DNA of 34,146 nucleotides from a candidate division CPR2 bacterium GW2011_GWC2_39_10 (GTDB taxonomy: Bacteria > Patescibacteriota > CPR2), in contig LBVV01000012.1 in NCBI GenBank assembly GCA_000993275.1, positions 1-34,146 on the forward strand, read 5' to 3'. How positions within the stretch are numbered: position 1 is the first letter of the stretch; each line of letters starts with the position of its first letter. The notes beneath the pieces were generated by a model that had not been told where the DNA came from, made no database searches, and was given only the letters and a program-made list of their open reading frames with translations. A program made the translations under genes and the position numbers. Below are positions 3,770 to 34,146 of the stretch, piece by piece.

Positions 3770-4290
3770 TTGCTTAGTCAGCTGGATGGTCGCCCAAACC
3801 CAATGCTTCGCATTGGAAGCACTAAATTCTAAATCACAAATTCTAAACAAATTCAAATGATCAAAAAACTAAAAAAATGTTTAGAGATTATAAATTAGGA
3901 TTTAGAATTTTCATTGCGTAGCAATGGTTAGGGGAGGAAAGTCCGGGCACCGTAGAGCAGGATGGTTCCTAACGGGAACCGGGAGTACATTGTTTGTGTT
4001 TGTTCTTAAGACAAATTTAAGCAATCAAGTCTAGGGAAAGTGCCACAGAAACAAAACCGCTCCGACTTTACGTCGGAGTAAGGGTGAAAAGTGAGGAAGT
4101 AAGACGCCTCTCTCGTCATGGTGACATGAACGAGTGGTAAACCCCATTCGGTGCAAGGCCGGTGGACTAATTAAACTAACTATCTGCTCGATAGGGTTTA
4201 GGCAGTCCGGCCGCATGAGGCTAATGGCAACATTAGTCCTAGATAGATGATCATTTAAACAGAACCCGGCTTATAGGCTGGCTGAGCAAC
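3770..4290 (+). ncRNA. rnpB: RNase P RNA (bacterial type A) with an atypical ~87-nt AT-rich insertion after P3
   Basis: P1 pairing ttgcttagtcagc (3770-3782) with gctggctgagcaa (4277-4289). P3 hairpin ccaatgc-UUCG-gcattgg. P4 5' strand GGAAAGTCCGGGCACC at ~3930. gtaaaccccattcggtgcaaggcc present. P4 3' strand ACAGAACCCGGCTTA at ~4256. Confidence 0.8.
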
Positions 4291-4379: not shown

Positions 4380-5456
4380 ATGATTAACAAAGAAAGGTTG
4401 ACCCAAAACTTTCTTAAGCTTGTTCAGATTGATAGTGAGTCAGGCGAGGAAGAAAATATTATTTCTTATTTAAAGGATGAGCTAAAAAGGTTAGGTTTTA
4501 ATTCCGAGATAGATAAAACGGGAAACCTTGTTGGCTGTAATTCTAATGAGCCAAAACTTTTATTACTAGCTCATGTTGATACTGTCAAACCCGGTAAGAA
4601 AATTAAGCCTATTGTAACCGAAGATGGAATTGTTAAAACTGATGGATCGACAATTTTGGGAGGTGATAATAAGAGTGGTATCGCAGCAATTTTAGAGATA
4701 TTAGAACAAATAAATGAAAATAATATAAAGGCTAATTTAGAAATTGCTTTCACGGTTCAAGAAGAGACCGGCCTTATAGGTTCGGCTAATCTTGATGTTT
4801 CCAAGATCAAATCAAAAAATGCCATTAATTTAGATGGTAAATTTGGTAATGTTGATTCTACCGAGCCAGCAATTATGCAATTCGATATAGTAATTAACGG
4901 CAAGGCAGCTCATGCTGGTCTGGCTCCAGAAAATGGCATAGACGCTGTCAAAATAGCTGCTAATGCTATTTCGGAGATGGAATTGGGGCGAATAGACGAT
5001 GAGACAACAGCCAATGTTGGATTAATAAAAGGTGGAGCGGCTAGAAATATTGTGCCGGAAAAGATAATTATTGAAGCAGAGGTTAGAAGTCGAAATGATG
5101 AGAAATTTAAGAAAGTATGTGAACATACTAAAAAAGTCTTTGAGACAGCAACTAAAGAGTACGGTGGTAAGATTGAGATAAATTGCATGCAAAGAAGCCG
5201 TATTTATTCATTGAGCAGAGATCAATATATTGTTGATGTTATTATCAAAAGTTTCCAGAAGAACGGTAGGGAAGCAAATTTTATTCCTAGTGGAGGCATC
5301 ACGGACGCAAATAACATGAATTATTTTGGAATCCAGTGTGTTACTGCGGGAGTTGGCGGTGAAAACATTCATTCCACGGAAGAAACTTTGAAGATTGATG
5401 ACTTGATATTGGGAACCCAAATTATTTATGATGCTGTGAAGGAGATCGCCATTTAA
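4380..5456 (+). CDS. M20 family metallopeptidase (PepT/ArgE-like)
   Basis: M20 motifs AHVDTV, GGDNKSG, QEETG and a late His (ENIHSTEE). Start moved to ATG 4380 (MINKERL), which has AAAGGAG upstream. The track start at 4311 lies inside the rnpB terminator. Confidence 0.7.
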   Translation: MINKERLTQNFLKLVQIDSESGEEENIISYLKDELKRLGFNSEIDKTGNLVGCNSNEPKLLLLAHVDTVKPGKKIKPIVTEDGIVKTDGSTILGGDNKSGIAAILEILEQINENNIKANLEIAFTVQEETGLIGSANLDVSKIKSKNAINLDGKFGNVDSTEPAIMQFDIVINGKAAHAGLAPENGIDAVKIAANAISEMELGRIDDETTANVGLIKGGAARNIVPEKIIIEAEVRSRNDEKFKKVCEHTKKVFETATKEYGGKIEINCMQRSRIYSLSRDQYIVDVIIKSFQKNGREANFIPSGGITDANNMNYFGIQCVTAGVGGENIHSTEETLKIDDLILGTQIIYDAVKEIAI

Positions 5457-7798: not shown

Positions 7799-8217
7799 TA
7801 TTCAAAAAATGGTTTTATGTCATTATCTTTATTTTGGACTTCGGCGGCAGTTTTAAGCGGCGGTTCTTTGGTGCCTTTCATAGAGCTTTGTCCCTCGAAG
7901 AAGGCGCCGGCGTCAATGGAGAGCGAAGCGGATTTAATATTGCCTAGCACTTTGCCCGTTTGTGTTATTTCTACCGAGATTTCAGCATCTATATCGCCCT
8001 CGAGATTGCCGGATATTACGACGTTTTTGGCTTTAATGCCGGCACTGACAATTGCTCCGTGTCCAATAGTAACGGTGCTTTCCGAGTCGATATCGCCGGT
8101 TAGTTCACCGTCAATAACAATATCGTGTTGGCTTTTTAAATTGCCTTTTAGTTTTACCGTATGGCCGATTACGGTTTCTTGCGACCCCATCTTAAAAAAA
8201 TCATCTTTTTTTGCCAT
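7798..8217 (-). CDS. Bactofilin family cytoskeletal protein
   Basis: Repetitive beta-helical G-x-V/I-x-G pattern (IVIDGELTGDIDSESTVTIGHGAIVSAGIKAKNVVISGNLEGDID). Confidence 0.7.
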   Translation of the reverse strand: MAKKDDFFKMGSQETVIGHTVKLKGNLKSQHDIVIDGELTGDIDSESTVTIGHGAIVSAGIKAKNVVISGNLEGDIDAEISVEITQTGKVLGNIKSASLSIDAGAFFEGQSSMKGTKEPPLKTAAEVQNKDNDIKPFFE

Positions 8218-8785: not shown

Positions 8786-9064
8786 ATGGCAAAGAAGAAA
8801 AAAACAAAGAAGTACCATTTAGACCATTTAATAAAAAAAATTGAGACTAAACCTCAAAAAGCAAAATCGGAAGAAAGTAAGTTTAAAAAAGAGATTACTC
8901 CTGAAATTAAAAAACAGTCAGACGATCAGATTTATTTTAAAAAAGATTTAAAAAAAGTGATTATTGTCGGTAGCTCGTTTGTATTACTTATTGTTGCCCT
9001 AGATTTGATAATAAACTACACTCATCTTTTAGATCCGGTGCTTAAATTATTTAAAATTAAATAA
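8786..9064 (+). CDS. Hypothetical small lysine-rich protein with C-terminal TM helix
   Basis: Extended -10 TGTATAAT at ~8750 and AAAGGAG before the ATG. No recognisable family. Confidence 0.45.
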   Translation: MAKKKKTKKYHLDHLIKKIETKPQKAKSEESKFKKEITPEIKKQSDDQIYFKKDLKKVIIVGSSFVLLIVALDLIINYTHLLDPVLKLFKIK

Positions 9065-9160
9065 TTTAGGAAACAGTAACCAGTAACCAGGAAGCAAAGA
9101 AATAGTATTGTCCCGATGTGTCTATTCAGCACACACCGGGTGTGTGCAGTACATAATTTA

Positions 9161-9283
9161 GAATTAAGAATAACGAATTATGAATCAGGTATAGAAATGA
9201 TGAATACAGAATAAAGAAAGAAAAAACTAAATTCTAAATTCAAGATTTCCATTCTTGGAATTTTATACGAGATTATTTATTCT
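9161..9283. repeat. AT-rich dispersed repeat, copy A (~120 bp)
   Basis: About 80% identical to 13863-13969: gaattaagaataa(c/t)gaattatgaat...gaataaa(g)aaagaaaa...attctaa...cattcttgg...tttatac...tttattct. Confidence 0.6.
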
Positions 9284-15266: not shown

Positions 15267-15332
15267 TAATGTCAAATTTCAAATATCAAATGCCAAATAA
15301 AATTCAAATGCTAAAAATCCTAAATACTAAGC

Positions 15333-15366
15333 ACCTGTCTCGACTGGCGTCTTGCCAAGGCGGACC
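15333..15366. repeat. GC-rich hairpin repeat, copy 2 (degenerate)
   Basis: acctgtctcgactggcgtcttgccaaggcggacc shares the CCTGTCTCG and CCAAGGCGG halves with 6311-6343 and 33735-33787. Confidence 0.45.
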
Positions 15367-15551
15367 AAATTCTAAACAAATAATAATATCAAATGTTCTA
15401 AACGTTTTAATAACTGAGATTCTTGACCCATCGGGTCATCAACCGAAGGTTGAGAAATTGTTTAGTATTTAGGTATTAGGATTTATAATTTTAAGTAGTT
15501 TATCATTTTTTTGTCTATTAATTAATTCGTAAAAAACGTTAAAATATAATC

Positions 15552-16445: not shown

Positions 16446-16577
16446 TCTTTAATTCAAAAATCAAATCTCAAAAGTCAAAATGATAAATTAAAAGTCAAAA
16501 TTTTTTAATTATTAATTATCATTATGATCTTTGATTTTTGCATTTTGATTTGGTCTATTTTGAGTTAAAATAGAACC

Positions 16578-18754: not shown

Positions 18755-18778
18755 AAATGTCAAAGCTTGAGCACAAGT

Positions 18779-18926
18779 GCTGAACCGCCCTCACTTTCCA
18801 TGTTGTCATTCCCGTGAAAACGGGGATCCAGGAAGTTTGGTCTTGCAATAAAGCTACTGGATTCCCGCCTCCGCGGGAATGACGGCTATGTGACATATTA
18901 GTATTTTAAAAGTGAGGGTGGTTCAG
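18779..18926. mobile_element. MITE-like non-autonomous element (~148 bp) with 17-bp TIRs and 8-bp target-site duplication
   Basis: TIR ctgaaccgccctcactt (18780-18796) versus the reverse complement of aagtgagggtggttcag (18910-18926), 16/17 match. Direct repeat GCACAAGT at 18771-18778 and 18927-18934. Internal core TTGTCATTCCCG...CGGGAATGACGG is shared with the elements at 33030-33107 and 33718-33925. Confidence 0.6.
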
Positions 18927-19060
18927 GCACAAGTCATTTACTTTTGGTCATAATTTTGCTATATTATGTAAGTTATAGATAGGAAGCAGGAATCAGAAAC
19001 CAGGAAACACTTGAGTCGTAATATTTTCTAAATTCTTTTGCTTATTGTTTATTGACGTGC

Positions 19061-27031: not shown

Positions 27032-30000
27032 GTGGAAATTACACGTTTTTACCGAAAACCGGCTTTATCGGTTTCCGGTACAAGACAACTGCTTGATCAT
27101 GTTCAAAATGTGCTTGGCTTTGAAGTTCCAAGAATCCGCACGGAAACTTGCTATTATGTCGAATCGGACAAGCCGCTAACACGAGGCGAGATTGCAAAAA
27201 TGCGGTATCTTCTTGCTGAAACGTTTGAACCACAGAATCTGGCAAGAGTGACGTTTCTATCTAAGAACAGCCGGAAACACAAAACAATTCTTGAAGTTGG
27301 ATCAAGACTGAGCTTTGAGACTCCCTGGTCATCCAGTGCGGTGGCAATTTGTCATCGCTGTGGCATTACAAAAGTTAATCGAATTGAGCGCTCTGTAAGA
27401 ATCGCTTTGCCGGTTAAGGTGTCCGATTCTCAAAAGATGGATATCTTAAAGCCGCTTTATGATCGGATGACTCAGGCAATCTATGACAAGCCACTTCGCA
27501 GTTTCGATTTGGGAGTTGTGCCGGAGCCGGTCCGGACAATTCCGGTTTTGGAAGAAGGGCCGGAGGTTCTATATCGGTTCAACGTTGAACTGGGTTGCGC
27601 TTGGGATGATGCAGACATCATGGATTACATATATCCGATGTTTGCTCACGATCTCAAAAGAAATCCTACTGACGTTGAATTGTTTCAAATCGCACAGTCA
27701 ACAACTGCCGAGCATTCACGGCACTGGTTCTTTAAGGGTGAGCTTGTCATCGATGGTGAGCCTGTGCCCGAAAAGGACTTGATGGAGATCATCAAGACGC
27801 CGTGGAAGCGAAATCCCGGTAATTCGGTAATTGCTTTTGATGATGACAGTTCGGCAATTAGGGGTAGCAAGGTAAAGCTTCTTATGGCATCTGATCCGTC
27901 TAAACCGAGTCAGATAGTTACAAAAGAGGTGGTGGCACATCCAACACTTACTGCCGAAACCCACAACTTTCCATCCGGAATCGCACCGTATCCCGGTGCC
28001 GCTACCGGAACCGGTGGCCGAATTAGAGATAATCAGGCTGTCGGTCGCGGTGGACTAGTTGGGGTCGGAGGAACAATGTACTGTGTGGGACATCTCCGTA
28101 TTCCCGGTTATGATTTGCCATGGGAACAAGATGGCTGGTGGCATTCACGCGATTTGGCTTCACCGTTGGATATCAAAATCAAGGCATCCAACGGAGCGTC
28201 TGATTATGGCAACTGTTTTGGTGAGCCGGTGATCTATGGTTCTGCAAGAAGCTTTGCCATGAAAACCTTAGATAGTGAGTACCGTGCTTGGCATAAACCA
28301 ATTATGTACACGGTTGGCGCCGGAAGGATTTTAGACGACCACATTAAAAAGGGTCAGCCTGAATCCGGCATGATTGTTGCGCAGGTGGGTGGCCCGCCTT
28401 ACCTCATTGGTATGGGTGGCGGTTCAGCCAGCAGTATGTCGCAAGGTGAGAACAAGGAAGACTTGAACCACAATGCGGCTCAACGTGGCAATCCGGAAAT
28501 GGAACAGCGCATGAACCGGTTTATGAGGGCATGTATCGAGCTTGGCGAAGCCAACCCAATCATTTCAGCGCATGATTTAGGTGCTGGTGGCGATTGCAAT
28601 GCTTTACCGGAGATAGTTGATCCTGCGGGTGCTATCATCAAGCTACGTAATATCCCCGTCGGTGATAAAACGCTGTCGGTGTTAGGCATCTGGGGTAACG
28701 AGTCTCAAGAGAGAAATGCTATCTTAGTATGGCCGGACAAGCTGGAGCTGCTGAAGAAAATCGCAAGCAGGGAAAATGTTCCACTTGCGGTGGTCGGTGA
28801 GGTTACCGGAGATGGTCAGCTAGTCGTTGTTGATGATAACGATGGTTCAACTCCGGTAAATCTGCCGCTAGGCAAGATCCTCGGCGAGCTGCCTCGAAAG
28901 ACCTTCCGGCTTACTCGCAAGAAACCAGTTCTTAAGCCTCTCGAAATACCAAAAGATTTAACAGTAGATGGGGCTTTGTGCGAAGTCATGCGACTGGTCT
29001 CAGTTGGTTCAAAACGGTTTCTTACTACTAAGGTAGATCGGAGTGTTACCGGTTTAATTGCCCAGCAGCAATGCGTGGGCCCAAATCAGCTCACTTTGTC
29101 CGATTACGCTGTGATTGCCGACAGCTACCAAGAGAAGACTTCAGGAGTTGCTTTAAGTATAGGCGAGAAGCCAATCATCGGTCTTATTAACCCCAAAGCC
29201 GGGGTGCGTATGAGCTTTGCCGAAGCACTTTTTAACATGGCACCGGCAGTCATCACGAAAAGAGAGGATATCAGACTTTCACTTAATTGGATGGCTTTAG
29301 CCAAAAAAGACGGTGAAGGCGCTGATATCTATGATGGCGCATGTGCTGCTAGAGACATTTGCTTGGATTGGAAAATTGCCATTGATGGCGGTAAAGACAG
29401 TCTTTCTATGGCAAGTAAAGTTACCGATCCTTATGGAAATGTTCACACGGCAAAGGCACCTATGGAAGCAGTGGCTGCGTTTTATGCCCCAATGCCCGAT
29501 GTAACCTGTAAGGTTACGCCGGATCTTAAAGAGGAAGGAAACTTCTTGTTGCTTATTGATTCGGCAAGAGGCAAGAATCGTCTTGGAGGATCAGCCTTTG
29601 CTTATGTAAATGGTCAACTTGGAGACGAAGTTCCGGATGTTGATGACCCAATGCTGGTAAAACGAAGCTTTGAAGCAATTCAAGAGCTTGTTAAAGCTGG
29701 TATGATTGTATCAGCGCATGACCGGATTGGTGATGGCGGTCTTCTTGTAAATATCCTCGAAATGGCGTTTGCCGGTAACTGCGGGTTGAATTTAGACCTC
29801 ACCAGTTATAGCAGTGAAATGTTCGAGGTTCTCTTTAGCGAAGAGGCGGGAATGATCGTTGAGTGCAAAAAACTCGGAGAGGTTATGGCGTTTCTTGCAA
29901 AGAGAGATATTCCATCTGTGCATCTAGGTGAGGTTGGAAGACAAAACGGGATGATCTCATTGAATTTCAATAACGAAACTGTGCTGCAAAAGCGCATGGT

Positions 30001-31135: not shown

Positions 31136-33469
31136 ATGAAAAGAGTTCAAATAAGTGTAATTGGGATTGTACAGGGGGTTGGTTTTAGGCCTCTTACTTT
31201 TAATTTGGCTAAAAAATTCAATTTGGCTGGTTTTGTTTTAAATGATTCCCTGGGAGTTAAAATTGAGATTGAGGGAAGGGCGGAGGATGTAGACAATTTT
31301 ATTTTAGAACTGAAAAACAATCCCCCAAAATCTTCAAAAATTGAAAGAATTAGTATTAAGGAAATTGATTTTAAAAAAGAGACGAGTTTTTTAATAAAGC
31401 AAAGTAAAAATACTAATAACCGCCAAAATATTTCCTCAGATTTGGCGTTATGCAAGGATTGTGAAAAAGAATTATTTGATCCCAAAAACAGGCGTTACCG
31501 CTATCCGTTTATTAACTGCTATAACTGCGGGCCGCGTTTTACGATTATTAGAAAAATGCCTTATGACCGTAAGAATACGACAATGGCAGATTTTAAGATG
31601 TGTCCGGAGTGCGAGGCGGAGTATAAAGACCCTTCTAATAGGCGTTTTCATGCCGAGCCTATTGCTTGTTCAAAGTGCGGGCCGGTAATTGCAGGAATCA
31701 GGAATCAGGAATCAGGAATCAACGTAATAGGCGAAGAAGCGATTCAGGAGACCATAAAGTTTATTAAAGAAGGCAAGATAGTGACCATTAAAGGGTTGGG
31801 AGGGTTTCAACTGGCATGTGACGCTACTAACGAAAAAGCCGTATCCGAACTAAGAAAAAGAAAAAACCGCCCAACAAAGCCCCTGGCTTTGATGGTTAGA
31901 GATTTGGAAGTGGCCGAGGAATACACAAAATTTCAAAAGGATTCGACCGTTTTAGAGGGTCTAACCCTCTTGGGGCAAGAGTCGCCTATTGTCCTTCTTG
32001 AGAAAAGAGGAAGCGATGTTTCGAATCTTATTGCTCCTAATCAACAAGATCTCGGAATAATGCTTCCCTATACGCCGCTTCATAAACTGATTTTTGAAAA
32101 CTTAGAAATTGCGCTGGTTATGACTTCGGGTAATATAAGCGGAGAGCCTATTATCACAGACAATAATGAGGCTTTGGAGAAGTTGGCCAAAATTGCTGAT
32201 TATTTTTTAATGAATGATCGAGATATTCATTCCGGTTATGACGATTCGGTGGTAAAGGTGGTGGATGGGGAAGTGCAGGTTATTAGAATGGCTAGGGGAT
32301 ATGCGCCAAAAAAAAATACTATTAATGATAATTTACCGCCCATGCTGGCTGTTGGCGGGGATTTAAAAAGTACTTTTGCTTTAGCTTGTGGTAACGAAGT
32401 TTATATAAGTCAGTATCTCGGGGATCTTCAAGGTTTTGATAATTTAAAAAGGTTCGAGGAAACGATATCCCTATATCAAAACCTATTCAAAATTAAACCC
32501 AAGTATATTGTTCATGATTTACATCCCGGCTATTTTTCAACAAAATGGGCTATAAAGCAGGGGATAGAAACTATTGCAGTCGGGCATCACAAAGCTCACA
32601 TTGCCAGCGTTATAGCAGAGCATCAAGTAAAAGAGCAGGTAGTTGGCGTTGCGTTTGATGGCTTGGGTTATGGGGAAGATGGTAATTTATGGGGCGGAGA
32701 GTTTTTTGTGGGTGATTTGGGCAGCTTGGAAAGAGCGGCCCATTTTGATTATTTTGCTCTGCCGGGTGGCGATGTGGCCGCTAAGGAACCATGGCGGGTG
32801 GCGGTATCGCTTTTATTTAAGGCAGGAGTTTCCGAACAAAAAATTAAATCTCTGTTTCCGAATAAGGATTTTATCAGCATAAAAAAGTTGATCGAACTAA
32901 AAATTAATTCGCCATTAACTTCAAGCGCGGGTAGAATATTTGACGCGGTGGCGGCTATTTTAGGCTTTGATGGACCTGTGACTTATGAAGGTGAAGCGGC
33001 AATGTGGCTAGAGAATTTAGCCTCTTTTTCTTGTCATTCGGAACTTGATTCAGAATCCTATCGTGCATCCCGAGAAGCTGGATTCCGGGTCAAGCCCGGA
33101 ATGACAAATGGGGATGGTTTTTATCCCCTTATTCTTAATACCCGAACAATTAATTTAGACAAAATGTTTGTTCAAATTATTAAGGATTTAGAAAACGGTG
33201 TTAAAAAAGAAACTGTTGCTGCTATGTTTCAAAACACTATTGTTGAGATAATTTTACAAAAAGCTGCTAATTTGGCCAGCGAGAATCAAATAAATGCGGT
33301 TGCATTATCCGGCGGCGTGTTCCAGAATAGTTTTGTCTTAAGCGTATCCGTTAAAAAACTAAGAGCAAAAGGCCTAAAAGTCTATTATAATAAAGAAGTC
33401 CCCATAAACGATGGCGGAATTGCTTTAGGCCAAGTTATTCTGGGAGCAAAATACTTGAAGAGGGTCTAA
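31136..33469 (+). CDS. hypF: [NiFe]-hydrogenase maturation carbamoyltransferase HypF
   Basis: Acylphosphatase VQGVGFRP, two CxxC-x18-CxxC zinc fingers, YrdC domain (IKGLGGFQLACDA) and Kae1-like C-terminus (LSGGVFQN). Contains the in-frame repeat insertions listed in the findings. Confidence 0.85.
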   Translation: MKRVQISVIGIVQGVGFRPLTFNLAKKFNLAGFVLNDSLGVKIEIEGRAEDVDNFILELKNNPPKSSKIERISIKEIDFKKETSFLIKQSKNTNNRQNISSDLALCKDCEKELFDPKNRRYRYPFINCYNCGPRFTIIRKMPYDRKNTTMADFKMCPECEAEYKDPSNRRFHAEPIACSKCGPVIAGIRNQESGINVIGEEAIQETIKFIKEGKIVTIKGLGGFQLACDATNEKAVSELRKRKNRPTKPLALMVRDLEVAEEYTKFQKDSTVLEGLTLLGQESPIVLLEKRGSDVSNLIAPNQQDLGIMLPYTPLHKLIFENLEIALVMTSGNISGEPIITDNNEALEKLAKIADYFLMNDRDIHSGYDDSVVKVVDGEVQVIRMARGYAPKKNTINDNLPPMLAVGGDLKSTFALACGNEVYISQYLGDLQGFDNLKRFEETISLYQNLFKIKPKYIVHDLHPGYFSTKWAIKQGIETIAVGHHKAHIASVIAEHQVKEQVVGVAFDGLGYGEDGNLWGGEFFVGDLGSLERAAHFDYFALPGGDVAAKEPWRVAVSLLFKAGVSEQKIKSLFPNKDFISIKKLIELKINSPLTSSAGRIFDAVAAILGFDGPVTYEGEAAMWLENLASFSCHSELDSESYRASREAGFRVKPGMTNGDGFYPLILNTRTINLDKMFVQIIKDLENGVKKETVAAMFQNTIVEIILQKAANLASENQINAVALSGGVFQNSFVLSVSVKKLRAKGLKVYYNKEVPINDGGIALGQVILGAKYLKRV

Positions 33470-33493
33470 CCCTCCTAAAAGAGGGTTAGACCC
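33462..33493 (+). repeat. Perfect 13-bp inverted repeat hairpin overlapping the hypF stop codon
   Basis: GGGTCTAACCCTC-ctaaaa-GAGGGTTAGACCC with no T-run after it. Sits between hypF and hypC. Confidence 0.5.
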
Positions 33494-33507
33494 TCAAAAG
33501 GAAAAAA

Positions 33508-33717
33508 ATGTGCTTAGCGGTGCCGGGAAAAATCATCAAAATAAATAAAGATATTGCGACGGTAGATTTTGGGGGTGTTGAAACCAAAGTCGGTTTGCAT
33601 TTGGTTGATAGCCCAAAAGTGGGGGATTGGGTTATTTCCCATGCCGGTATGGCAATTCATAAGATGACGGAGTGTGAGGCAAGAAAAGTATTCAGGGCGT
33701 TTGAGGGCAAAGTATAG
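33508..33717 (+). CDS. hypC: Hydrogenase maturation factor HypC
   Basis: MCLAVPGKI... N-terminal signature, ~70 aa, AAAGGA Shine-Dalgarno. Confidence 0.8.
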   Translation: MCLAVPGKIIKINKDIATVDFGGVETKVGLHLVDSPKVGDWVISHAGMAIHKMTECEARKVFRAFEGKV

Positions 33718-33925
33718 TTCGTCCTTGTCATTCTGCCTGTCTCGTTTGGCACTCACCAAGACGGGCCTGTCTCGATCCAAGGCGGGCGAAAGCAGGATTC
33801 TAGGAGGAGGAACTGGGTTCCTTGTCCCTTACAAGTCGGGCAGGCAAGCCAGGGATGAAAGAGAGTATGGATCCCGGATCAACTGATTATATTTTTTATA
33901 GGTATAGTCCGGGATGACAATAAGA
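33718..33925. repeat. Composite repeat element between hypC and hypD
   Basis: Termini ccTTGTCATTCtg (33723-) and ccgGGATGACAAtaag (-33924) resemble the TIRs of the 18779 and 33030 elements. Two tandem GC hairpins gcctgtctcg...ccaagacgggc and gcctgtctcgatccaaggcgggc at 33735-33787. Flanking direct repeat gtatagt at 33712 and 33902. Confidence 0.5.
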
Positions 33926-33933
33926 AAGCAAAT

Positions 33934-34146
33934 ATGAAAATATTAAAAGATATAAACAACAAAGCTAAACACCTAAAAAAACCCATCAAGATCATGGAGG
34001 TTTGCGGTACCCACACTATGGCGATTGCCAAAAATGGGCTTAAAAGTTTATTGCCGGAAAATATCCAGCTAATTTCTGGGCCCGGATGTCCGGTCTGTGT
34101 TACCGATCAAAGCGATATTGAAAAGATTATTTATTTGTCTTTACTT
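33934..34146 (+). CDS. hypD: Hydrogenase maturation factor HypD (5' partial, runs off window)
   Basis: Manual translation gives MKILKDINNKAKHLKKPIKIMEVCGTHTMAIAKNGLKSLLPENIQLISGPGCPVCV. The CGTH and GPGCPVC HypD motifs are present. Confidence 0.75.
   Translation, partial: MKILKDINNKAKHLKKPIKIMEVCGTHTMAIAKNGLKSLLPENIQLISGPGCPVCVTDQSDIEKIIYLSLL

Follow-up and report, generated by a model that had tools for sequence, protein, structure and literature searches.

The stretch of DNA analysed here (the window, 34,146 nt) comes from the candidate division CPR2 bacterium GW2011_GWC2_39_10 and ends among its hyp genes, where hypF, hypC and the start of hypD follow one another. The gene hypF encodes the carbamoyltransferase HypF, a protein that is 100% identical to KKQ94184.1 and matches the Caldanaerobacter HypF structure (PDB 3VTH) at E 1e-201. 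The 777-aa open reading frame (ORF) has each of the five Pfam domains of HypF (Acylphosphatase, zf-HYPF, Sua5_yciO_yrdC, HypF_C and HypF_C_2), giving an acylphosphatase, a zinc-finger, a YrdC-like and two Kae1-like domains. Inside this gene lies a palindromic element, here called element B, which leaves the ORF uninterrupted and the reading frame intact (Table 1). It falls within PF22521, the second Kae1-like subdomain of HypF (residues 504-766); a preliminary description of the locus had placed it in the Kae1-like domain. Beyond element B, the window holds one clear intergenic copy of the same kind of element (element A) and one divergent copy (element C).

An in-frame insertion in the Kae1-like domain of HypF

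Element B reads cTTGTCATTCGGAACTTGATTCAGAATCCTATCGTGCATCCCGAGAAGCTGGATTCCGGGTCAAGCCCGGAATGACAA. An inverted-repeat search resolves it into two arms of 28 nt each, which are 79% complementary and lie 21 nt apart, and its termini, TTGTCATTC and GAATGACAA, are perfect inverted 9-mers, as had been noticed before. The length of 78 nt in the preliminary description holds as a frame-preserving span, but it needs one ambiguous flanking base, since the distance from one terminal inverted repeat to the other is 77 nt (33031-33107). Four copies of the 9-mer TTGTCATTC occur in the window against 0.27 expected (about 15-fold), and 0 of 100 shuffles reach four. As RNA, element B folds into a stable hairpin of -31.6 kcal/mol on the plus strand (z -3.0) and -34.0 kcal/mol on the minus strand (z -4.3). 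Its G+C content is about 51%, compared with 40% for the window. At 77-78 nt it carries no ORF of its own, and only one of its six frames is without a stop codon, which is the frame read by hypF. Sequence, arms, fold and intact ORF thus agree on an in-frame palindromic element at this position.

The protein bears the mark of this element. Loop length was measured between the invariant residues A622 and Y663 in 125 HypF homologues; the loop has 40 residues here and 13-19 in 111 of the 125, with a mode of 14 (76 homologues). Near-exact register with the 3VTH sequence is regained once 26 residues are removed. The extra residues are 633-658 (CHSELDSESYRASREAGFRVKPGMT, N), so that the added peptide has about the 26 residues proposed earlier but does not start at SFS. 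They are found only in 99%-identical strains of the same species (P0121 and P0122). By this comparison, element B is shown to be a derived in-frame insertion relative to other HypFs, and it is fixed in the sampled population.

A structure model was made with AlphaFold2 (AF2) from a 41-sequence alignment and reached a mean predicted local distance difference test score (pLDDT) of 90 and a predicted template modelling score (pTM) of 0.90. Foldseek places it on 3vth_A with template modelling (TM) scores of 0.91/0.94 and a root-mean-square deviation of 2.3 Å. The single segment with pLDDT below 50 comprises residues 633-658 (CHSELDSESYRASREAGFRVKPGMTN), that is, the insert, and it is positioned between helix 620-631 and the next strand. 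The model indicates that the HypF fold is probably intact and that the insert is a floppy, probably disordered loop of ~26 residues. Its position is a putative surface loop, at which the modelled fold tolerates it.

Table 1. Coordinates of hypF, its insert and related palindromic elements. Positions refer to the window unless a contig handle (L) is given; CM R1 is the covariance model described in the text.
Feature	Coordinates	Strand	Evidence or location
hypF (carbamoyltransferase HypF, 777 aa), host gene of element B	31136..33469	+	ORF
Element B, in-frame palindromic element, 78 nt, codes HypF residues ~633-658	33030..33107	+	palindrome, fold, loop outlier, pLDDT
Left arm of element B, decayed GTCAT-hairpin module (TTGTCATTCGGAACTTGATTCAGAATCC)	33031..33058	+	CM R1 12.0 bits, E 0.76
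Linker of element B, 21 nt	33059..33079	+	gap between arms
Right arm of element B, intact module (reverse complement TTGTCATTCCGGGCTTGACCCGGAATCC)	33080..33107	-	CM R1 38.4 bits, E 1.1e-7
B-left, model match	33029-33062	+	CM R1 12.0 bits, E 0.76
B-right, model match	33076-33109	-	CM R1 38.4 bits, E 1.1e-7
Element A, intergenic doublet of hairpin module	18803..18885	+	downstream of gatD, upstream of tRNA
A-left, model match	18801-18833	+	CM R1 40.8 bits, E 2.6e-8
A-right, model match	18855-18887	-	CM R1 43.5 bits, E 5.5e-9
Element C, 197 nt, termini TTGTCATTC ... GGGATGACAA	33725..33921	+	hypC-hypD spacer
pal2 (GAGGGTCTAACCCTC-N6-GAGGGTTAGACCCTC), unrelated to element B	33460..33495		overlaps hypF stop codon
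pal2 in sister lineage	L001 3595-3632, 3989-4024; L125 11967-12003, 12361-12397		HypF loop and stop-codon sites
Dehalococcoidia inserts, same contig	L157 ~4920-4990 and 8053-8087		HypF loop; hypD

A hairpin module across phyla and its known relatives

What is element B made of? Both ends of element A and the right end of element B have a module in common, (T/C)GTCATTCC-stem-loop-stem-GGAATCCAG, with a G+C stem and a short loop. The likeness of element B to an element near 18807-18880, which had been pointed out before, lies in the hairpin module in which both end. Element A itself folds at -49.7 kcal/mol (z -7.8). It is nested in a larger inverted repeat at 18776-18928 (CTGAACCGCCCTCACTTT ... 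AAAGTGAGGGTGGTTCAG) just downstream of gatD, and looks as if it had landed in the loop of a terminator-like hairpin. The left arm of element B agrees with the right arm's reverse complement at 22/28 positions and, by eye, is 23/27 identical to a CTTGA-loop variant of the module, TGTCATTCCGGACTTGATCCGGAATCC, in two of the loci described below (L085 and L120). On this alignment both arms derive from one CTTGA-loop variant, which has decayed in the left arm.

One genome per species was scanned for the module with the pattern TGTCATTCCSGN{4,8}CSGGRATCC, which gave at least 120 loci, with no CPR2 record among the matches listed. The listed matches cover Proteobacteria, Chloroflexota, Nitrospirota, Planctomycetota, Bacteroidota, many Patescibacteria, a Rickettsia endosymbiont and a metagenome-assembled genome (MAG) of Nanoarchaeota. 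In the 120 listed loci, 67 of 141 module matches have an inverted partner within 260 nt, forming doublets of 53-154 nt; the linkers of these doublets are unrelated between genomes, and their architecture is that of elements A and B. Across 68 modules from the listed loci (A4), the hairpin is 98.7% paired, a figure inflated by the picking of part of the sample with a palindromic pattern, and 7 of 8 pairs show compensatory change, with 0 of 500 shuffles doing equally well. Conservation of the hairpin through compensatory changes is thereby shown at the level of the alignment.

These 68 modules of other phyla, with zero CPR2 sequences among them, were used to build a covariance model (CM R1), whose matches in the window are both ends of element A and the right end of element B (Table 1). 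By these matches, element B is shown to belong to a repeat family present in the window and across phyla. As far as such comparisons reach, it is not specific to CPR2 and is built from a pan-bacterial hairpin related to the NTS and Ssn-related motif of Neisseria. Could the extra residues instead be an ordinary loop expansion by slippage or duplication, palindromic by chance, or an assembly chimera? The A622-Y663 loop does vary between 13 and 19 residues among HypFs, but a model from other phyla that matches the right arm at E 1e-7 and a terminal 9-mer enriched about 15-fold in the window speak against a chance palindrome. Against a chimera, the insert is present in the ENA, JGI and second NCBI strain-bin assemblies: the HypF protein is identical between ENA and JGI, the JGI DNA matches the window exactly across 13 kb, and the insert DNA of the strain bin (GCA_000995565.1, L124) is identical to that of the window. 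We regard such an origin as having next to no likelihood.

The kinship with Neisseria came from a literature search on GTCATTCCCGCG, which led to a study of 2025 (PMC11893778). In that study, the Neisseria NTS repeat is CGTCATTCCCGCGMAVGCGGGAATCYRG, which contains the classical dRS3; the small GIY-YIG nuclease SsnA cuts NTS on single-stranded DNA (ssDNA), and copies of NTS frequently flank its gene, ssnA. Degenerate Ssn-related motifs (SRMs), described by the expression HGTCWYN(0-2)YYVSBRHN(0-5)WNVSBRGN(0-2)RNCYNB, are abundant in Rickettsia, Wolbachia, Neisseria and others (PMC11893778). NTS and SRM share with elements A and B the module sequence itself, the orientation with GTCAT as 5' flank of the hairpin, and an occurrence in very diverse bacteria. 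The right arm of element A, CGTCATTCCCGCGGAGGCGGGAATCCAG, is 27/28 identical to the NTS consensus, and its left arm matches the SRM expression (1 match against 0.025 expected). However, NTS and SRM have been described as single intergenic hairpins clustering around genes, whereas element B is an in-frame doublet, and its right end has a 7-nt CTTGA-type loop and does not fit the strict SRM expression. The strict expression being too narrow for element B, it was replaced by the covariance model.

Among the listed loci, 7 of 134 elements are within long open frames. Pfam confirmed the host gene of an in-frame element in three cases: a Parcubacteria MAG has one in TGT (VIPAKAGIQ...LDSRLRGNDT), a proteobacterial MAG has a doublet of 78 nt in TruB (CHPREGGDP...LDSRLRGNDK), and the Rickettsia endosymbiont has a doublet of 129 nt in IleRS (ileS; CHSREGGNPEKK...LDSRLRGNDT). 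The doublets of the module in this endosymbiont measure 118-133 nt, and the start of the HypF insert peptide, CHSELDSES, is in the same module phase as CHSREGGNP of the endosymbiont IleRS. In addition, a contig binned as Nanoarchaeota (L040) has a single in-frame module at 1510-1535 (SVIPAQAGIQ) in a DNA-methylase-like ORF; if this binning is correct, the module is also present in archaea.

Rickettsia is also the genus of the paradigm for in-frame palindromes. Rickettsia palindromic elements (RPEs) are 105-146 bp long and comprise the families RPE-1 to RPE-10 (Ogata et al. 2000 Science 290:347; summarised in PMC2229807 and PMC10969869). Like element B, RPEs are palindromic repeats with terminal inverted repeats and a long stem-loop and encode no transposase. 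Their copies are intergenic as well as in frame in conserved housekeeping genes, with a peptide that is tolerated by the fold. The end of RPE-1 copies is ...CGCAATGAC, presumably a variant of the same terminus. The two differ in host (Rickettsia versus CPR2, a member of the Patescibacteria) and in length (105-146 bp versus 78 nt). NCBIfam should hold RPE-domain models, and the inserted peptides gave no match to NCBIfam at E up to 10. With its CPR2 host, its 78 nt and this lack of a match, element B is of the same kind as RPEs without belonging to a named RPE family. The likeness is probably homology of the building block and not only analogy, because the module doublet stands in frame in the IleRS of a Rickettsia endosymbiont in the same phase as the HypF insert; the comparison covers the module doublets and their peptides.

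Other repeat classes share the architecture. REPINs (REP-BIMEs, mobilised by RAYT (Y1) transposases) and the NIMEs of Neisseria likewise consist of two inverted palindromic units with a variable spacer that form one long hairpin, and they are non-autonomous and presumably ssDNA-based, as would be the case for element B. REPs are by definition extragenic, and the unit sequence of the REPs of enterobacteria or Pseudomonas is unrelated to the module. No RAYT or Y1 transposase is encoded in the window. Bacterial MITEs (transposable elements of the miniature inverted-repeat type) with in-frame fusions, such as ERIC, Correia and BOX, are also small, have terminal inverted repeats and a stable transcript hairpin, and show occasional intragenic in-frame copies like element B (PMC10969869). 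Element B has the terminal inverted repeats, the small size and the lack of a transposase that define a MITE, yet it differs in having no TA or other target-site duplication, and no insertion sequence (IS) is present in the window. We know of no parent IS with ends matching element B. Other searches were negative: Rfam at gathering thresholds gave RNase P RNA and two tRNAs only, Rfam in E-value mode over 32900-34000 gave only sub-threshold chance matches to hairpin-like models, and nothing relevant was found in full-text literature on typical insert peptides or on candidate phyla radiation (CPR) bacteria combined with palindromic elements.

One HypF loop, three kinds of insert

The same HypF loop has received inserts in other clades. 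In a sister CPR2 lineage (GWD1_39_7, GWD2_39_7 and GWC1_41_48), HypF is 74% identical and lacks element B. Three codons from the B site, it has a different palindrome of 38 nt, AGAGGGTCTAACCCTC-gtaccc-GAGGGTTAGACCCTCT, which is read in frame as RGSNPRTRGLDPL (13 aa) and belongs to a second family, pal2. Both CPR2 lineages also have a pal2 copy where hypF ends, at its stop codon. In a metagenome scan, pal2 was recovered in 29 stretches whose hosts have 35-72% G+C, commonly in the form TTTTCAGAGGGTCTAACCCTCTGATCAGAGGGTTAGACCCTCTGAAAA, and it is in frame in a UvrC-like gene (EGLTLCFRGLDPL; L135, L146 and L153). At 31955-31969, hypF itself contains a perfect half-site of pal2 (GAGGGTCTAACCCTC, translated as EGLTL), at a place where both CPR2 lineages have 4-5 extra residues compared with other HypFs (DSTV-LEGLT / GSTLSLEGRT); an older pal2 insertion may have left this half-site behind.

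A third type occurs in a Dehalococcoidia HypF clade (P0059, P0092-94, P0099, P0102 and P0116, with 77-90% mutual identity), in which the loops have 26, 33 or 46 residues. A GTCATTGCGAGG-type palindromic module is read there in two frames, which give the peptides CHCEER... or VIAR...DEAIS. The insert DNA of P0093, cTGTCATTGCGAGGAGCGA...GCTCCGCAATCTCCAATGAt, starts within one codon of the start of element B and in the same phase, and the hypD gene of that genome has a single in-frame module of its own (SGLLRCARNDK). Three clades with three element types in one HypF loop point either to very few permissive sites or to some target preference; no flank sequence shared among the three insertions was seen.

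Recurrence at one loop raises the question of whether HypF has come to use the inserted peptide, say to contact HypE or HypC, so that selection on the protein now keeps it. Such exaptation would fit inserts at the same loop in three clades, a Dehalococcoidia insert that persists across 77-90% identity and an insert that is identical in three strains. Yet the peptides of the three clades are unrelated, add 11-32 residues and use differing frames (CHCEER... versus VIAR...), AF2 gives no confident structure for the insert, and the one RPE insert tested in Rickettsia, in gmk, was neutral or slightly harmful (PMC2229807). Because of the unrelated peptides in three clades and the lack of a predicted structure, we consider exaptation very unlikely.

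Element C, which differs from the window in its G+C content (0.51-0.58 versus 0.40), was not detected in the CM R1 scan; its membership rests on shared termini and on homology to an element of the sister species. The element of that species, which shares homology with the right end of element C, occupies the hypD-hypE spacer (L125 13971-14075), while the copy here is in the hypC-hypD spacer. The relocated relative of element C and the differing HypF loops of the sister lineage are indirect signs of what may be mobility on an evolutionary scale.

A stretch of 900 nt where hypF, hypC and hypD adjoin one another holds as many as three palindromic elements, namely B, pal2 and C. Strain GCA_000995565.1 differs from the window at 14 single-nucleotide polymorphisms (SNPs) confined to 32715-32893 (180 nt of hypF), 137-315 nt upstream of element B, with no differences in the rest of the 4.2 kb compared; this cluster looks like a recombination tract. 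Both observations bear on the possibility that the hairpin is kept for a function in cis at the nucleic-acid level, either as an Ssn-like nuclease target tuning recombination or transformation near the hyp genes or as a structure in the hypF-hypCD mRNA acting on its stability or translation, with the peptide as a by-product. Neisseria NTS hairpins cluster at particular genes and modulate the integration of transforming DNA (PMC11893778), and the SNP tract just upstream of element B recalls the raised diversity beside dRS3 in Neisseria. The long hairpin of element B is still stable (-31.6 to -34 kcal/mol), and a function in cis is compatible with an origin by insertion. Nevertheless, the hairpin of the left arm lacks four of its stem positions and this arm scores only 12 bits with CM R1, the 62 kb of CPR2 DNA searched contain no Ssn gene, and most HypF genes are without any such element. 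On balance a cis function seems unlikely, if less so than a role of the peptide.

Some other observations concern the window at large. Four sites (31687-31718, 1818-1849, 9062-9093 and 18975-19006) carry a heptad repeat rich in purines, (GGAATCA/GGAAACA)n; three copies are intergenic, two of them adjoining tRNA genes, and one is inside hypF, where the protein has three extra residues (IRNQESGIN) compared with the sister lineage. A+T-rich intergenic inverted repeats of 80-170 nt of the AAATTCTAAATCC type lie at 3824-3910, 9155-9240, 15315-15484 and 16455-16540, one of them abutting the 5' end of the RNase P RNA gene (3895-4289), and may be a third repeat family. The contig ends of three separate assemblies (ENA, JGI and NCBI strain bin; L002, L003 and L124) coincide within ~40 nt at the window end (34146), roughly 210 nt into hypD, which suggests a repeat or strain break just past the window. 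In strain GCA_000995565.1, 13 unrelated bases replace 76 nt at 29836-29911, and PurL (1310 aa here) becomes ORFs of 943 aa and 337 aa. This 63-nt difference was considered as a polymorphic element (the GGCGGGAATGA string) and rejected, being ordinary PurL coding sequence with no repeat element.

Origin, mobilisation and meaning of the insert

Taken together, element B is very probably a non-autonomous palindromic repeat of the RPE, REPIN or MITE type that inserted into a loop of HypF, was tolerated there and has since suffered decay of its left arm. The RPE-type in-frame insertion suggested by the preliminary description is upheld by the outlying loop length and by the doublet in the IleRS of the Rickettsia endosymbiont. 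Its further expectations were borne out as well: the 26 residues are absent beyond strains of the same species (the sister lineage having a different insert of 13 aa), other copies exist in the element A doublet, the 197-nt element C, the right arm matches a model built from other phyla (CM R1), the RNA forms a stable hairpin (-31.6 / -34.0 kcal/mol), and the insert maps to a predicted loop that is the sole segment with pLDDT below 50.

Several results weigh against this interpretation. The search for an empty-site allele among metagenome contigs, with the HypF flanks joined by a 55-80-nt gap, gave 0 matches, and the flanks of elements A, B and C show no direct repeat that could be a target-site duplication. 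B-left has by itself no significant CM R1 score (E 0.76), and B-right fails the strict SRM expression, which A-left alone passes. The count of further copies in the CPR2 genome, one clear and one divergent, covers the 34-kb window. Finally, the 62 kb of CPR2 DNA searched contain no GIY-YIG gene and no transposase.

How would such an insert arise and persist? In the scheme that we propose, two inverted copies of the module with a 21-nt linker would have entered HypF at a surface loop of variable length in its Kae1-like C-terminal domain. Element B would have survived because its length keeps the frame and the frame used is free of stop codons; a gene that is needed would retain an insertion only if it is in frame, lacks stops and sits at a permissive site, and this would account for the single open frame out of six. 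By analogy we infer, with good support, that the insert is translated as a disordered loop that is tolerated and neutral or nearly so. Given the decay of its left arm, this copy is probably immobile. Spread of the family would depend on an enzyme that acts in trans and recognises the GTCAT-flanked hairpin on ssDNA.

As to this enzyme, the best candidate, albeit a doubtful one, is a single-domain GIY-YIG nuclease of the Ssn type. Small single-domain GIY-YIG ORFs (94-125 aa; PF01541) are present in 3 of the 120 listed loci (L018 6116-6476, L083 1616-2032 and L064 7260-7550). In L018 and L083 the module directly abuts the GIY-YIG gene or overlaps its 5' end, which matches the NTS-ssnA arrangement of Neisseria. 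With no candidate gene in the 62 kb of CPR2 DNA, the mobilising enzyme is a conjecture. More broadly, RPEs, the NTS/dRS3 of Neisseria and the elements of CPR2, Parcubacteria, Dehalococcoidia and others might constitute one pan-bacterial superfamily of GTCAT-hairpin doublets, probably mobilised on ssDNA by Ssn-type GIY-YIG enzymes, with the HypF loop after helix 620-631 as a recurrent acceptor for three element types in three clades independently. We offer this unifying view tentatively, as a reading that we hold to be somewhat less likely than not.

In-frame palindromic elements (RPEs) and the hairpin module (NTS/dRS3/SRM) were already known. New are the occurrence of such an element in a CPR bacterium, the arrangement of the module as doublets in many phyla, its direct link to in-frame insertions, including those of a Rickettsia endosymbiont, and the recurrent acceptor loop in HypF. 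For annotation, peptides such as CHSREGGNP, VIPAKAGIQ, LDSRLRGND and LLRCARNDK in conserved proteins flag insertions of this kind, which can distort alignments and gene calls in MAGs. The different palindromes in one loop of three HypF clades provide a natural experiment on permissive sites versus target preference, and since the host enzyme has solved homologous structures, the effect of the insert is measurable. Furthermore, the hairpin is the same as the SsnA target, which supplies a testable candidate for RPE-like movement, a question open since 2000. In-frame insertion of palindromes has hitherto been regarded as a speciality of Rickettsia, and element B is a clear-cut example from a CPR bacterium, whose genome is reduced. 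If the superfamily view is true, palindromes that code for protein segments in frame would be a general bacterial phenomenon, extending beyond Rickettsia.

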